NCBI GenBank assembly: GCA_963805085.1
Contig: CAWDTA010000005.1
Span: forward strand, 352,001 to 416,000
From: an uncultured Veillonellaceae bacterium
GTDB lineage: Bacteria; Bacillota; Negativicutes; JARBTT01
Length of the DNA stretch: 64,000 bases
Direction of reading: 5' to 3'
Shown here one piece after another: positions 58,241 through 63,501 of the stretch. Below the pieces are notes generated by a model that ran no database searches, was not told where the DNA came from, and saw only the letters and a list, made by a program, of their open reading frames with translations. Position numbers and translations under genes: made by a program. Positions within the stretch are counted from its first letter, which is position 1. The number at the start of each line of letters is the position of its first letter.

Positions 58241-58271
58241 TTGACTTGGAGTCAACTCCAAGTTGTACAAT
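58241..58271 (+). promoter_or_regulatory. MerR-type promoter/operator 3 (lar operon)
   Basis: TTGACT-N19-TACAAT with dyad CTTGGAGT-CA-ACTCCAAG. Confidence 0.9.
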
Positions 58272-58409
58272 GAATTTATCAGTAAAAAATTGCTGATTTT
58301 CAAAATAGAGTCTTTTGTATTCCATTTTAAAATAGCTAAAAGGTATTTAACTTAAAGTTAGTTACGAAGAATAAAGGTGAATAAAAATTATGATATGGAG
58401 AATTCAATA

Positions 58410-59681
58410 ATGAAAGTGTTATATTATGATTGTTTTTGTGGCATCAGCGGCGATATGAATCTAGGTGCATTGCTGGATTTGGGAGTGGATGAAGACTACC
58501 TAAGGCAGGAGTTGTCTAAGCTCAATCTGGATGTTGAATATGAGCTGCAGGTAAAAAAGGATAATAAAAGTGGAATAAGCGGAACTAGAGTGGATGTAGT
58601 CTTAAAAAACGCAATGCATGTTCATAAGCATGAACATGACCACCATGATAATGACCATCATCATGAAGAACCGACTGGAATGGAGTCTGACACTTTGCAT
58701 ACGCATCATGCGCATAGAAATTTTAAGGATATTGAAAATATAATAGTAAACAGTACTTTAAGTGATCGGGTAAAGAAGTTAAGCTTGGATATTTTTATGA
58801 AGGTAGCAGAAGCAGAAGCAAAGGTTCATGGAAAACCTCTATATGAAGTGCATTTCCATGAGGTTGGGGCCGTTGACTCAATTGTTGATATTGTGGGAGC
58901 TGCTGTGTGTTTAGATTATTTAAAGGTGGATAAGATTATGGCTTCATCGGTTCAAGTAGGCGGAGGGTTTGTAAAATGTGCGCATGGTATCATTCCAATT
59001 CCTGCTCCGGCAACTGTTGAAATTTTAAAAAACATTCCTATGAAATCAGGTATAGTGCAGTTTGAAACGACTACTCCTACCGGGGCGGCGATATTAGCGG
59101 CAAATGTAGGCTCATTTACAGACCACATGGACTTTACCGTAGAAAAGATTGGCTATGGAATAGGTCATAGAGATCTTGAGATTCCTAATGTTTTAAGGCT
59201 ATATCTTGGCTATAAAGATAGAAACGATAAAAAAGAAGAGCAATATATATTGGAGACCAATATTGATGATATGAATCCAGAACTCTACGGTTATATAGAA
59301 GAAAAACTTTTTAAACAAGGGGCTTTGGATGTATTTAAGACGGCAATTTACATGAAAAAAGGCAGGGCTGCGATAAAGCTCAGTATATTAGTTAATGAGA
59401 AAGAGGAAGAAAACGTACTTGACGTAATTTTCCGTGAGACGACTTCCATAGGTCTTAGAAAATACAAGGTTGAAAAAATTATGTTGTCGAGAGACTTCGT
59501 AAAGATCAGCACACAGTACGGAAATGTAACGGTCAAAAATGCATATTATCAAGGCGAAAAAGTGAAGTATAAACCAGAGTATGAAGATTGCAAACGAATA
59601 GCCAATGAAAAAAACATACCTATTTCCAGAGTATACCAAGAAGTTTATAAAATTATAGGGGACAATGAGAATGATAAATAA
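58410..59681 (+). CDS. larC: nickel-pincer cofactor nickel insertase
   Basis: DCFCGISGDM, His-rich insert, VHFHEVGAVDSIVDI, TTPTGAA, ETNIDD, KPEYED. Confidence 0.95.
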   Translation: MKVLYYDCFCGISGDMNLGALLDLGVDEDYLRQELSKLNLDVEYELQVKKDNKSGISGTRVDVVLKNAMHVHKHEHDHHDNDHHHEEPTGMESDTLHTHHAHRNFKDIENIIVNSTLSDRVKKLSLDIFMKVAEAEAKVHGKPLYEVHFHEVGAVDSIVDIVGAAVCLDYLKVDKIMASSVQVGGGFVKCAHGIIPIPAPATVEILKNIPMKSGIVQFETTTPTGAAILAANVGSFTDHMDFTVEKIGYGIGHRDLEIPNVLRLYLGYKDRNDKKEEQYILETNIDDMNPELYGYIEEKLFKQGALDVFKTAIYMKKGRAAIKLSILVNEKEEENVLDVIFRETTSIGLRKYKVEKIMLSRDFVKISTQYGNVTVKNAYYQGEKVKYKPEYEDCKRIANEKNIPISRVYQEVYKIIGDNENDK

Positions 59682-60477
59682 TGAAAAATATCTAAACTTA
59701 ATTAATTCTTTAAAAAATATGGGGAAAGTCATCTTAGCTTTCTCTGGAGGCGTAGACAGTACTTTTTTACTAAAAGTAGCTAAAGAGACATTAGGCAATA
59801 ACGTTAAAGCAGTAACAATACAATCTCCTTATATTCCAAAATGGGAAATTGAAGAAGCAAAACAGTTAGTAGCCGAACTTGGGGTAGAGTTTGAAATCTT
59901 AGAGGCACCTATTATTGATGAAATTAGAAACAACCCTGAAAATAGATGTTATTTATGTAAAACGGCAGTCTTTAGTCAGATAAAAGCAATTGCAAAAAAG
60001 GAAGGGTATCCTTACGTTATTGATGGTACAAATTTTGATGATATTGGTGATTACAGGCCTGGCTTAAAAGCACTGAGTGAACTGAATATAAAAAGTCCTT
60101 TATTAGAGTGTCAATTGACCAAACAAGAAATAAGAAATTTATCTAAAGAGTTAGGACTTGCCACTTGGGATAAACCACCATATGCATGTCTGCTTACAAG
60201 AATACCCTACGGTAATAAACTGAAAGAAGAAGACTTTATCAAGATAGAAAAAGCCGAAAGATATATGATGGAGAGGGGCTTTCGAGCAATTCGTGTGCGG
60301 TGCCATGAAGATTTGGCGAGAATTGAAGTGGATAAAAAGGATAGAAGTAAATTATTTAATGAGGTACTTTTTGACGAAATTTCTGGTAAGTTTAAAGAAT
60401 TTGGCTTTAAGTATGTAACTTTAGATTTAGAAGGATATAGGGTCGGGAGTTTTAATGAGACAATAGAAATTAAATAG
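59665..60477 (+). CDS. larE: ATP-dependent sulfur transferase
   Basis: PP-loop SGGVDS, RCYLCK, DYRPG, ACLLTRIPYG. Confidence 0.95.
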   Translation: MRMINNEKYLNLINSLKNMGKVILAFSGGVDSTFLLKVAKETLGNNVKAVTIQSPYIPKWEIEEAKQLVAELGVEFEILEAPIIDEIRNNPENRCYLCKTAVFSQIKAIAKKEGYPYVIDGTNFDDIGDYRPGLKALSELNIKSPLLECQLTKQEIRNLSKELGLATWDKPPYACLLTRIPYGNKLKEEDFIKIEKAERYMMERGFRAIRVRCHEDLARIEVDKKDRSKLFNEVLFDEISGKFKEFGFKYVTLDLEGYRVGSFNETIEIK

Positions 60478-60512
60478 CCCGATCTAATCTCAAAATATTT
60501 CGGGAGGAAATA

Positions 60513-61259: not shown

Positions 61260-61319
61260 GATAACTGATGCCTGTAAAAATGATATCAAAACAAATTAAA
61301 ATAAAAGGGGCCTAAAGAT

Positions 61320-62441
61320 ATGGAAAAGAAAAAATTAGGATTTGGCTTTATGCGTTTACCTTTGAAAAGTAAGAATGATCCAGAAAGTATTGATAAGGAT
61401 GCATTAAATCAAATGGTAGATACTTTTTTGGAAAGAGGGTTTACCTATTTTGATACAGCGTATATGTACCATTCAGGGAAAAGTGAGGCAGCAATAAGAG
61501 AAGCTTTGGTTAAGCGGCATAAAAGAGACAGCTTTACTTTAGCAACAAAATTGCCAACAATGTTTTTAAAAACAAAGCAAGATCAGGAAAGAATATTTAA
61601 CGAACAATTAGAAAAGTGTGGCGTAGAGTACTTCGACTACTATCTGTTACACAACCTTGGTATAACAAATTATGAGACAGCACAGAAGCTTGATAGTTTT
61701 ACCTTTATTCAAAAAAAGAAAAAAGAAGGAAAGATCAGACAGATTGGATTTTCTTTTCATGATACTGCCGAGTTATTAGACGAAATATTAACAGCACATC
61801 CGGAAGCCGAGTTTGTTCAATTACAGATTAATTATCTAGATTGGGACAATGAAAGCATTCAGTCAAGGAAATGCTATGAAGTAGCAAGAAAACATAATAA
61901 ACCGGTTATTGTTATGGAACCTGTCAAAGGTGGTATGCTGGCAAGACTGCCTGAAAAAGCAGAAGAGTTATTAAAAAAATATCATCCAGATATGTCGATA
62001 CCATCATGGGCTATACGTTATGTGACAAGTCATGAGGGCGTCATGATGGTATTAAGTGGGATGTCTGATATAAAGCAGTTACGGGATAATACAGGTTATA
62101 TGCAGGACTTCAAGCCGTTTGTGCAGGAGGAATATGAACTTGTTAAAAATGCAGTTAAGATTATTAACGAGTCTATTGCGATTCAATGTACAGCCTGTCA
62201 GTACTGTGTAGATGACTGTCCAAAAAATATAGCAATTCCGAAGTATTTTGCATTATACAATACAGAAAAACAATCCCCGCCATCCCAATTTTCCATACAA
62301 CGAGTATATTATGACAATTACACAAAAAAGCATGGTAAGGCGTCAGACTGTATCGGATGCAAACAATGTGAAAAAAGCTGCCCACAGCATATTGAGATTA
62401 TAAAACATCTAAAGGATGTAGCTGCTGTTTTTGAAGCATAA
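61320..62441 (+). CDS. aldo/keto reductase with C-terminal 2x[4Fe-4S] domain
   Basis: [30 protein letters not shown] and [12 protein letters not shown]. Confidence 0.92.
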
Positions 62442-62493
62442 TTTTCTTAGATAGGAGCTAGAAAAATTTTAAGAAGGAAGGCGCAATCGCTAT

Positions 62494-63501
62494 ATGCAGA
62501 CTGTAACACTAGGAAGAACAGGACTGATCGTAAGTAAAAATGGATTTGGAGCACTCCCTATCCAGCGTGTTGAAAAAAAAGATGCTGTGTATTTATTGCA
62601 GAAAGCATTTTATAACGGAATCAATTATTTTGACTCGGCAAGATGGTATTCAGACAGCGAGGAAAAACTTGGTGCAGCCTTTTCTTATACAAGAGATAAG
62701 ATTATTATCAGCACCAAAACGGGAGCGCAGACAGCTGAAGGTTTCTGGAAAGATTTAGAGCAAAGCCTTAACAATCTGCAGTCGGAATATATTGACATCT
62801 ACCAGTTCCATAATCCTGCCTTCTGCCCAAAGCCAGATGATGAATCTGGTCTTTATGAGGCAATGTTAGAGGCAAAGAAACAAGGAAAAATTCGTTTTAT
62901 CGGAATTACAAATCATAGATTATCTGTGGCAAAAGAAGCAATAGCATCGAATTTATATGATACGATGCAGTTTCCATTTTCTTATCTTGCAAGTGATGCA
63001 GATGTAGAAATCGTGGAATCATGTAAGAATAAGAATATGGGATTCATTGCAATGAAAGCTTTATCCGGAGGATTGATTACAGACTCTGCCGTGGCATATG
63101 CATATTTTGCACAATATGAACGTGTTGCTCCAATCTGGGGCATACAGCGTGAAAATGAATTAGATGAATTTTTATCCTATCATGATAATCCGCCAATTTT
63201 GACAGATGGGATGAAAAAACAGATTGAACACGATAGAAAAGAATTATTAGGTGATTTCTGCCGAGGCTGTGGTTATTGTATGCCATGCCCTGCTGGAATT
63301 GAAATCAATAATTGTGCAAGAATGAGCCTTCTCCTACGTCGTGCTCCGCAGGATACGTATCTGTCGAAAGATTGGCAGGAGAAAATGAAGAAAATTGAGA
63401 ATTGTCTTCATTGCAATAAGTGCATGAGCAAATGTCCATATAAACTGAATACGCCAGAACTATTAAACAAGAACTACGAGGACTATAAGAGCTTTTTATA
63501 G
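62494..63501 (+). CDS. aldo/keto reductase with C-terminal 2x[4Fe-4S] domain
   Basis: GFGALPIQR, FDSARWY, STK, QFH; CRGCGYCMPCP and CLHCNKCMSKCP. Confidence 0.92.
   Translation: MQTVTLGRTGLIVSKNGFGALPIQRVEKKDAVYLLQKAFYNGINYFDSARWYSDSEEKLGAAFSYTRDKIIISTKTGAQTAEGFWKDLEQSLNNLQSEYIDIYQFHNPAFCPKPDDESGLYEAMLEAKKQGKIRFIGITNHRLSVAKEAIASNLYDTMQFPFSYLASDADVEIVESCKNKNMGFIAMKALSGGLITDSAVAYAYFAQYERVAPIWGIQRENELDEFLSYHDNPPILTDGMKKQIEHDRKELLGDFCRGCGYCMPCPAGIEINNCARMSLLLRRAPQDTYLSKDWQEKMKKIENCLHCNKCMSKCPYKLNTPELLNKNYEDYKSFL

Follow-up and report, generated by a model that had tools for sequence, protein, structure and literature searches.

The five genes considered here lie on the forward strand of the window, i.e., the whole 64,000-nucleotide stretch of DNA that was analysed, in the order larC (58377-59681), larE (59665-60477), larB (60513-61259), AKR1 (61320-62441), and AKR2 (62494-63501). 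Profile matches show that larC encodes a fused LarC1+LarC2 nickel insertase (PF01969, E 3e-155), which exceeds the NCBIfam cut-offs in both of its parts (LarC1, 227 vs 90 bits; LarC2, 152 vs 50 bits). The ATG at 58410 is possibly the true start of this gene. larE encodes a sulfur insertase of the three-Cys ([4Fe-4S]-type) kind (TIGR00268, 334 bits, cut-off 150) and larB an NaAD carboxylase/hydrolase (NF033503, 304 bits, cut-off 175). With LarB, LarE, and LarC all above curated NCBIfam cut-offs, the set for biosynthesis of the nickel-pincer cofactor (NPN) is complete and intact. In the LarE translation, the CxxC...C signature noted in the original prediction is formed by C95-x2-C98 and the distal C175, which we take to be positionally equivalent to the Cys residues of the Thermotoga enzyme. 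LarE of the three-Cys type is described as binding a [4Fe-4S] cluster in Thermotoga maritima (PMC9283937).

The gap between larB and AKR1 measures exactly 60 nt (61260-61319) and that between AKR1 and AKR2 exactly 52 nt (62442-62493). The open reading frame coordinates thus agree with the earlier claim that larCEB is followed at these distances by two genes encoding aldo/keto reductases (AKRs) with two [4Fe-4S] motifs each. The claimed lack of a terminator between the genes also held, since scanning of the + strand from 58377 to 63501 revealed no terminator-like site. Such sites on this strand are located at 56604-56633 and at 63634-63653, the latter being a weak hairpin 3' of AKR2.

A MerR-type promoter (58241-58271, + strand) with the -35 box TTGACT, a 19-nt spacer, and the -10 box TACAAT precedes larC, and its spacer holds the perfect 9-2-9 inverted repeat ACTTGGAGT-CA-ACTCCAAGT. 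Position 58241, where the original prediction had let the region begin, is the -35 box of this promoter. Copies of the NmlR-type operator are also found on the + strand upstream of merR1 (56020-56040, an operator/promoter copy with 3 mismatches to the larC copy), upstream of a phosphoesterase gene (56666-56686, 2 mismatches), and upstream of merR2 (63710-63730), resulting in 4 operator matches in the window vs 0.01 expected by chance. merR1 (56089-56484, + strand; 131 aa) is an intact gene for a short, NmlR/AdhR-like MerR protein, which has no sensor domain and carries a Cys in the motif FIKCMR. merR2 (63761-64000, + strand) is a degenerate copy of the regulator gene that contains a TAG in frame at 63896-63898, encodes an aberrant C-terminus, and continues beyond the window end. 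A counterpart of merR2 follows AKR2 in the related loci L004, L019, and L020. In these three loci, in L081, and in the window, the AKR module has an NmlR-type operator upstream; in the window, larCEB is placed between the promoter and the AKR genes.

NmlR/AdhR regulons are described as MerR-family, thiol-based responses to carbonyl and formaldehyde stress (HiNmlR, PMC5001606). The system in the window resembles them in its short MerR regulator without sensor domain and with a conserved Cys after the wing, in its 19-nt promoter spacer with an inverted repeat touching the -35 box, and in its putative targets, aldehyde-metabolising oxidoreductases. It differs from them in that merR1 stays below the NCBIfam cut-off for NmlR (NF041849, 140.7 bits, cut-off 175) and in that the target is an operon for cofactor biosynthesis and AKRs rather than adhC/adhA. 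The best explanation of this arrangement is that larC-larE-larB-AKR1-AKR2 form a five-gene operon with one NmlR/AdhR-type MerR promoter in front.

AKR1 (373 aa) contains a full-length AKR barrel, with PF00248 covering positions 1-289 of the 291 in the profile, and AKR2 (335 aa) matches the same profile over positions 9-199. This early end of the AKR2 match is an indirect hint that the protein may have a shortened cofactor cavity, with no room for the AMP half of NAD(P), as expected of NphT-type AKRs. Both proteins additionally score over the cut-offs for Fer4_9 and Fer4_17. The Cys motifs of these Fer4 domains are two CxxCxxCxxxCP in AKR1, and one CxxCxxCxxCP plus one CxxCxxCxxxCP in AKR2. In the AF2 model of AKR2 (pLDDT 94.4), all eight strands of the barrel are present, with the Fer4 domain coming after them, and a Foldseek search with AKR2, conducted against a library without 9YEB, returned AKRs as the top matches.

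The core of the original prediction, that AKRs beside larBCE use the nickel-pincer cofactor, is already in print: Semersky et al. (Nat Chem, June 2026, PMC13524815) described NphT, an AKR whose gene lies next to larBCE in the absence of larA. In that work, K200 is described as the residue covalently attached to NPMN (nickel-pincer mononucleotide), H144 as a ligand of the Ni, and D47/Y52/K75/H106 as the tetrad (PMC13524815). According to the same source, 34% of 427 lar-associated AKRs have both the His and the Lys and 40% the His only, and canonical AKRs that use NAD(P)H lack the His/Lys pair (PMC13524815). The terms '4Fe-4S' and 'ferredoxin' have 0 occurrences in the main text of that paper, and a flow of electrons from the cofactor to Fe-S clusters, the second part of the original prediction, is not a subject there.

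Among 97 PDB matches of AKR2, the top one was NphT (9yeb_A, E 2.4e-24), with the match limited to AKR2 residues 1-203. All four tetrad residues, H144, and K200 of NphT aligned with equivalents in AKR2 (D47, Y52, K75, H106, H141, and K188, respectively), as did the hydrophobic residue preceding the Lys and the Thr at His-2 (T139). AKR1 likewise keeps the tetrad, as the original prediction had stated for both AKRs, and the NphT-type His (GFSFH), but has Glu where NphT has its Lys, and the next Lys stands three positions further on (EPVKGG). Equivalents of the tetrad and the Glu were each present in 7/7 AKR1 orthologues. NphT and the operon AKRs have in common the TIM barrel, the tetrad, the larB, larC, and larE genes encoded alongside, and a genome that lacks larA. 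However, NphT is a 288-aa single-domain monomer, whereas both operon AKRs end in a ferredoxin-like domain with 8 Cys residues and are encoded under an NmlR-type stress promoter. Canonical AKRs share the fold and the tetrad with the operon AKRs but have Ser at the position of AKR2 Lys188 ('SPL'; 8scc alignment, L085), an aromatic residue at that of His141 (L085/L086), and no Fe-S domain.

Since AKR1 and AKR2 resemble NphT and the genome of this Clostridia-type bacterium shows no LarA, the two proteins are probably a new iron-sulfur form of the NphT-like nickel-dependent reductase. The proposal that the AKRs use NPN is thus right in kind but not new, because NphT was characterised experimentally; it gains support from the His and Lys of AKR2 and less from AKR1, which has the His only. 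What is new is the Fe-S fusion, the NmlR/AdhR-like control, and the linkage of AKR-Fer4 to lar genes in four differently ordered loci of two phyla. An unlikely alternative is that the pair are ordinary stress-induced carbonyl reductases working on NAD(P)H or reduced ferredoxin, and that larCEB serves a client elsewhere and is merely co-promoted. The full-length AKR domain of AKR1 and its lack of a tethering Lys fit such ordinary reductases. The published description of the His/Lys pair as foreign to canonical AKRs argues against them, and so does the genome itself: of its four AKRs, the NphT-type His occurs only in the two operon AKRs and the Lys in AKR2, whereas the other two have canonical SNY/SPL-type residues and no His/Lys pair.

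The search for other cofactor users covered the genome (4.21 Mb in 5 contigs, estimated completeness 83%). No match to Lar_N (PF09861), the LarA domain, was obtained in this 83% complete assembly, whereas control genomes gave matches, and the same assembly contains no DUF362 protein and no ornithine cyclodeaminase over cut-off. The absence of larA, originally noted for the window, therefore extends genome-wide, with no larA client elsewhere. Classical lar operons, with LarA as lactate racemase or as another LarA-family 2-hydroxyacid racemase/epimerase, have the same three biosynthetic genes. Their client is LarA and their chemistry racemisation, whereas the candidate client here has a different fold and would be expected to perform oxidoreductase or hydride-shuttle chemistry. 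That no known client family besides the AKRs was found in this genome speaks against ordinary reductases that are co-promoted with larCEB.

The linkage of AKR-Fer4 genes with lar genes recurs in other genomes. In G157, which lacks LarA and belongs to another family, the arrangement is merR-AKR2-AKR1-MBL-larC-larE-larB-nicO, and the spirochaetes G518 and G470 have AKR1-larB-larC and AKR1-(AAA/PD-(D/E)XK)-larE-larB-larC, respectively. Together with the window, these are four independent clusters, each differently ordered, from two phyla, which argues against ordinary reductases. Among close orthologues of AKR2 (53-85% identity), however, neighbourhood counts show that the linkage is not conserved. 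Only 1 of 80 loci has a lar-like gene within 10 kb (L026), where it encodes a LarE-like protein with Rrf2 and ThiF and does not belong to a lar cluster, and none of the 80 loci has a larB+larC+larE neighbourhood without larA. The neighbours of AKR2 in these loci vary (HAD hydrolase in 14, MarR in 6, MatE in 6, and Fe-ADH in 5), as would fit stand-alone detoxification genes, and both observations favour the ordinary-reductase explanation.

LarC is present in 53 of the 80 genomes carrying close AKR2 orthologues; the remaining 27 comprise 25 MAGs and 2 cultured strains. Anaerotignum sp. MB30-C6 has a close AKR2 orthologue and no LarC on a complete chromosome, and in 5 checked LarC-less AKR2 genomes, including both cultured strains, LarB and LarE over cut-off were absent as well. 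Such orthologues with identical motifs in lar-less genomes are again in line with ordinary reductases. We compared LarC co-occurrence using Fisher tests, in which related genomes are not independent. Within a sample of 300 genomes of the class Clostridia (at least 90% complete), LarC occurred in 57/57 genomes with an AKR2-like protein vs 181/243 without. This is mostly uninformative, because LarC is very common (239/301 genomes of the class sample) and because LarA accompanies the AKR2-like protein in 54 of the 57 genomes. At least 18 LarA-less, LarC-positive genomes of the sample have no AKR2-like protein. Among 151 Spirochaetota genomes, LarC was found in 6/6 that encode an AKR2 orthologue (identity 51% or more) vs 44/145 others, and in 13/19 with an AKR1-like protein vs 37/132 others. 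This enrichment in a phylum with a base rate of 33% argues against the ordinary-reductase explanation. Full-length distant AKR-Fer4 proteins of Spirochaetota (31-37% identity) had LarC in 5/10 genomes.

The AKR-[4Fe-4S]2 fusion family comprises 476 clusters (50% identity, E below 1e-30), and close relatives of AKR2, 83-85% identical, are found in Clostridium ljungdahlii, C. autoethanogenum, and C. carboxidivorans. When the query was aligned with the 80 loci, 80 of the 81 rows kept the tetrad, the His, the Lys, and Cys256-265, and one was gapped. Of the eight ligand Cys residues, C310/C314 are present in 79 rows and the other six in 80. In full-length sequences of the family (P0002 plus 51 representatives, 31-54% identity), the His and the Lys were each found in 51/52. 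All 5 fetched AKR-Fer4 proteins from LarC-less Spirochaetota genomes, one of which has a 3.53-Mb contig, keep the His, the Lys, and the 8 Cys residues. Since LarC-less genomes keep the motif, the His/Lys pair is not enough to show cofactor use across the family. Orthologues with this pair in lar-less genomes are also a warning that the published motif may over-predict nickel enzymes.

It is conceivable, yet quite improbable in our view, that the His/Lys pair of AKR-Fer4 proteins serves another end, such as binding another cofactor, pyridine-type or not, or acting on the substrate. Nickel-pincer use would then be derived in the Fer4-less side branch of NphT, and the motif would be ancestral and not diagnostic. 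The near-invariance of both residues and their persistence in LarC-less genomes would be expected in this case. It would leave unexplained, however, why lar genes lie inside the AKR transcription unit of a genome without another client, why the linkage recurs in G157, G518, and G470, and why close AKR2 orthologues coincide with LarC in 6/6 Spirochaetota and 57/57 class-sample genomes.

We favour the explanation that AKR1 and AKR2 use the nickel-pincer cofactor, and judge it to be reasonably likely. LarB, LarE, and LarC would make nickel-pincer mononucleotide from NaAD, and the two AKR-[4Fe-4S]2 proteins would be its users in the host organism. In the fashion of NphT, AKR2 may tether the cofactor covalently via Lys188, with His141 on the nickel, and AKR1 may hold it non-covalently, through the His only. 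The Asp/Tyr/Lys/His tetrad would perform carbonyl/alcohol hydride transfer on reactive aldehydes, which are what NmlR-type regulators sense. The ferredoxin-like domain might couple the hydride transfer with a one-electron carrier, or serve redox control. The analysis directly shows which genes are present and in what order, the promoter and operator, the motifs, the homology to NphT, and that no other client families were found; cofactor binding by the two proteins, the substrate class, and any electron transfer between Fe-S clusters and cofactor are inferred. More speculatively, and less likely than not, the whole AKR-[4Fe-4S]2 family could consist of nickel-pincer and iron-sulfur enzymes, in which the nickel pincer acts as a two-electron/one-electron converter from hydride to ferredoxin, a role otherwise filled by flavins. 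Such enzymes would provide anaerobes with a pyridine-nucleotide-independent, carbonyl-stress-induced aldehyde/alcohol:ferredoxin oxidoreductase.

To our knowledge, a single fold was known among clients of the nickel-pincer cofactor until 2025-2026, and just one client of the AKR fold has been characterised so far. If the Fe-S-fused AKRs are clients, a large family, common among gut and acetogenic anaerobes, joins this enzyme class, and nickel-pincer chemistry is tied to iron-sulfur electron transfer, a coupling for which we know of no precedent. The cofactor would also gain a role in LarA-less organisms: defence against aldehyde stress, controlled by an NmlR-type regulator.

The phosphoesterase gene that follows the second operator copy (56815-58152, + strand) encodes a purple-acid-phosphatase-like metallophosphoesterase (Metallophos, Pur_ac_phosph_N) and apparently belongs to the same regulon as the operon. 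A 39% identical relative of this protein is encoded beside an AKR2 orthologue in locus L005.

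The larC (58377-59681, PF01969, E 3e-155), larE (59665-60477, TIGR00268, 334 bits) and larB (60513-61259, NF033503, 304 bits) genes lie on the + strand and are followed, after a gap of 60 nt, by AKR1 (61320-62441, + strand, 373 aa) and, after another 52 nt, by AKR2 (62494-63501, + strand, 335 aa). Both AKRs consist of an aldo/keto reductase domain and a subsequent 4Fe-4S dicluster domain. Open reading frames and profile matches bear out every detail of this arrangement as given in the original prediction, which had also seen no obvious terminator between the genes. We detected no terminator-like hairpin on the + strand within the larC-AKR2 unit, the first one past the operon being located at 63634-63653. 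The genes for a BBE-like FAD oxidase, a LysR regulator and an MFS transporter situated 5' of the regulon (window 51902-55977) show no apparent link to the lar operon.

Use of the nickel-pincer cofactor by an AKR encoded beside larBCE is a concept known since June 2026. As a literature check showed, nickel-pincer AKRs are in print: Semersky et al. (Nat Chem 2026; PMC13524815) mined LarC neighborhoods without LarA and obtained 427 co-occurring AKRs. One of these, NphT, covalently binds the nickel-pincer mononucleotide (+450 Da) with Lys200 as the tether and His144 on the nickel, retains the Asp/Tyr/Lys/His tetrad of AKRs (D47/Y52/K75/H106) and transfers hydride back and forth between sugars and aldehydes, with activity reported on aldoses and butanal (PMC13524815). 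His and Lys occur together in 34% of the lar-associated AKRs, His only in 40% and Lys alone never, and 798 homologs carry the motif (PMC13524815).

NphT was also the best PDB sequence match of AKR2 (9yeb_A, E 2.4e-24, residues 1-203). D47, Y52, K75, and H106 of AKR2 align with the identically numbered tetrad residues of NphT, and T139, H141, and M187-K188 align with T142, H144, and I199-K200, the 9yeb_A chain numbering being offset by 3 in this alignment. The AF2 model of AKR2 (47 sequences, pLDDT 94.4) contains all eight barrel strands and two helices, followed by Fer4 from about residue 255. AKR1, whose best 60 PDB matches do not include NphT, shares the tetrad and the nickel-binding His (in GFSFH) with NphT but has a Glu in place of the tethering Lys and a conserved Lys three residues further on; all of these features are found in 7/7 AKR1 orthologs. 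Thus, both proteins keep the tetrad, as originally predicted from the sequence.

To look for other users of the cofactor, we searched the organism's own assembly (GCA_963805085.1; 4.21 Mb in 5 contigs, estimated completeness 83%). The window had been noted to lack larA, which encodes the classical nickel-pincer client, and the LarA domain Lar_N (PF09861) likewise had no match in these 5 contigs. DUF362 was not matched in the genome either, and the ornithine cyclodeaminase family, cited in PMC13524815 as a user of an adenine-dinucleotide form of the cofactor, gave one match below the cut-off. A NicO nickel importer was sought in the same genome and not found. The genome encodes one LarC and four AKRs. 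The two AKRs encoded elsewhere show the canonical residues at both diagnostic positions (His and Lys), and the operon AKRs are the only ones that bear the His or both His and Lys.

A MerR-type promoter (TTGACT, 19-nt spacer, TACAAT) is located at 58241-58271, 5' of larC, and its spacer contains the perfect repeat ACTTGGAGT-CA-ACTCCAAGT. This NmlR-type operator is present in four copies in the window, compared to 0.01 expected: at 56020 5' of merR1, at 56666 5' of a purple-acid-phosphatase-like gene, at 58241 5' of larC and at 63710 5' of the degenerate merR2. The merR1 gene (56089-56484) encodes a short MerR regulator that has no sensor domain and carries a Cys in FIKCMR; its best NCBIfam match is NmlR, with a score of 140.7 bits, which is under the cut-off of 175. 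Members of the NmlR subfamily are thiol-based sensors of formaldehyde/carbonyl stress and are characterized by a conserved Cys and promoter spacers of 19-20 bp (PMC5001606). The second regulator copy, merR2, starts 3' of AKR2 (63761-64000 in the window, on to about 64063 in locus L082). It is interrupted in frame by a TAG codon at 63896-63898, a position occupied by Trp in relatives, and has a shortened, aberrant C-terminus, while intact MerR genes occupy this position after AKR2 in L004, L019, and L020. Probably, merR2 is a pseudogene and merR1 at 56089 is taking over. Since an NmlR-type operator is also found 5' of the AKR module in L081, L004, L019, and L020, the AKR1-AKR2-merR unit appears to predate the insertion of larCEB into it in the window genome. 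Transcription of larCEB is predicted to start from the AKRs' own stress promoter. The same operator as that of larC precedes a gene for a purple-acid-phosphatase-like metallophosphoesterase (window 56666-58152), a 39% relative of which is encoded directly 3' of the AKR2 ortholog in L005.

AKR/lar modules recur with different gene orders in three other genomes. In G157, which belongs to a different family of the same class and has no LarA over the cut-off, the order is merR-AKR2(65%)-AKR1(60%)-MBL fold-larC-larE-larB-nicO-DUF362/Fer4. The spirochetes G518 and G470 show the orders AKR1(70%)-larB-larC and cupin-AKR1(47%)-AAA/PD-(D/E)XK-larE-larB-larC, respectively, with DUF362 and another AKR nearby in G470. 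The predicted AAA-ATPase/PD-(D/E)XK nuclease gene between AKR1 and larE of G470 (L084 10799-12385) looks like a selfish insertion. The NicO nickel transporter gene of G157 directly follows larB (L081 15066-16076). DUF362 proteins adjoin the lar clusters of both G157 (L081 16158-17264) and G470 (L084 6003-7070), one of them with an inserted Fer4 pair.

Considering 300 genomes of the class with a completeness of at least 90%, and cross-reading two separate genome surveys for LarC and AKR2-like proteins (E <= 1e-70), we found LarC in 57/57 carriers and in 181/243 other genomes. Most of the 57/57 co-occurrence is uninformative, given the high frequency of LarC (239/301) and LarA (221/301 over the cut-off) in the class. 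Among 151 Spirochaetota genomes, 50 of which have LarC over the cut-off, LarC accompanies AKR2 orthologs at least 51% identical in 6/6 genomes (others 44/145) and AKR1-like proteins in 13/19 (others 37/132). The Fisher p-values, which overstate the case because related genomes are not independent, were 4e-7 for the class sample (1e-3 without family f21) and 1e-3 and 8e-4 for the AKR2 and AKR1 comparisons in Spirochaetota. Besides the organism's own genome, only G157, G253, and G337 in the class sample encode an AKR2-like protein while lacking LarA over the cut-off, and at least 18 LarA-less, LarC-positive class genomes have no AKR2-like protein.

The neighborhood statistics suggested in the original prediction gave a divided answer, as the clusters of G157, G518, and G470 stand against 0 true lar clusters in 80 loci of AKR2 orthologs (53-85% identity). 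In these loci, a lar-like gene within 10 kb was found once, in L026; as this LarE-like gene stands with Rrf2 and ThiF, we did not count the locus as a lar cluster. This PP-loop protein gene (L026 7645-9762, 48% to the window LarE) lies between genes for an Rrf2 regulator and a ThiF-family protein, with neither larB nor larC near it, and may belong to a different sulfur-transfer system. LarC was present in 53/80 of the ortholog genomes (35/50 + 18/30); the 27 LarC-less ones comprise 25 MAGs, Lachnotalea sp. AF33-28 and Anaerotignum sp. MB30-C6 (complete chromosome). In five LarC-less genomes checked, including both cultured strains, neither LarB nor LarE was detected over the cut-off. All motif residues are kept in 80/81 alignment rows of the AKR2 orthologs, the remaining row being gapped. 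Distant full-length members from Spirochaetota (31-37% identity) come from LarC-positive genomes in only 5/10 cases, and the His, the Lys, and 8 Cys are kept in 5/5 distant members fetched from LarC-less Spirochaetota genomes. Because lar-less genomes carry motif-bearing AKR2 orthologs, the motif alone does not prove nickel-pincer dependence across the AKR2 family, whose members may depend on the cofactor facultatively, only in certain lineages or not at all. No conserved redox partner was found beside the AKR2 orthologs in the 80 loci, whose neighbors include HAD (14/80), MarR (6), MatE (6) and Fe-ADH (5).

For the window organism, the original proposal that these AKRs use the nickel-pincer cofactor gains from NphT and from the lack of another client, and is weakened by the orthologs in lar-less genomes. 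On balance, AKR1 and/or AKR2 are likely users, because the genome holds no other recognizable client, the genes share the stress promoter, these are the only His- or His/Lys-bearing AKRs, NphT provides a precedent, and three further clusters are known. The NmlR type of the regulator and the activity of NphT on aldoses and butanal point to reactive aldehydes as the probable substrate class. We purely speculate that electrons might pass between the cofactor and the Fe-S clusters.

Nickel-pincer AKRs with a fused Fe-S domain were not described in any paper retrieved by our literature search. The main text of PMC13524815, as distinct from its large supplementary lists, contains 0 occurrences of '4Fe-4S' or 'ferredoxin', and in part of its supplements Fer4, 4Fe-4S, ferredoxin, and PF00248 matched only PDB metalloprotein lists. 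Neither the Fe-S fusion nor control by an NmlR-type regulator nor the lar-less counter-examples were encountered in the searched literature, the large supplementary lists of PMC13524815 excepted.

The AKR2 family comprises 14350 representatives at E <= 0.001 and 476 at E <= 1e-30, and AKR2 shares 83-85% identity with proteins of Clostridium carboxidivorans, C. ljungdahlii and C. autoethanogenum, among others. When P0002 and 51 full-length representatives (31-54% identity) were aligned, His and Lys were each present in 51/52 sequences and each Fe-S Cys in 45-50 of 52. Spirochaetota also encode short proteins (253-268 aa) resembling AKR2, which were considered as Fer4-less NphT-like forms and dropped because the tetrad, His, and Lys are missing in 6/6. 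These proteins, encoded in L087-L092, score E 1e-50 to 1e-57 against AKR2 and may represent a non-catalytic or repurposed barrel family.
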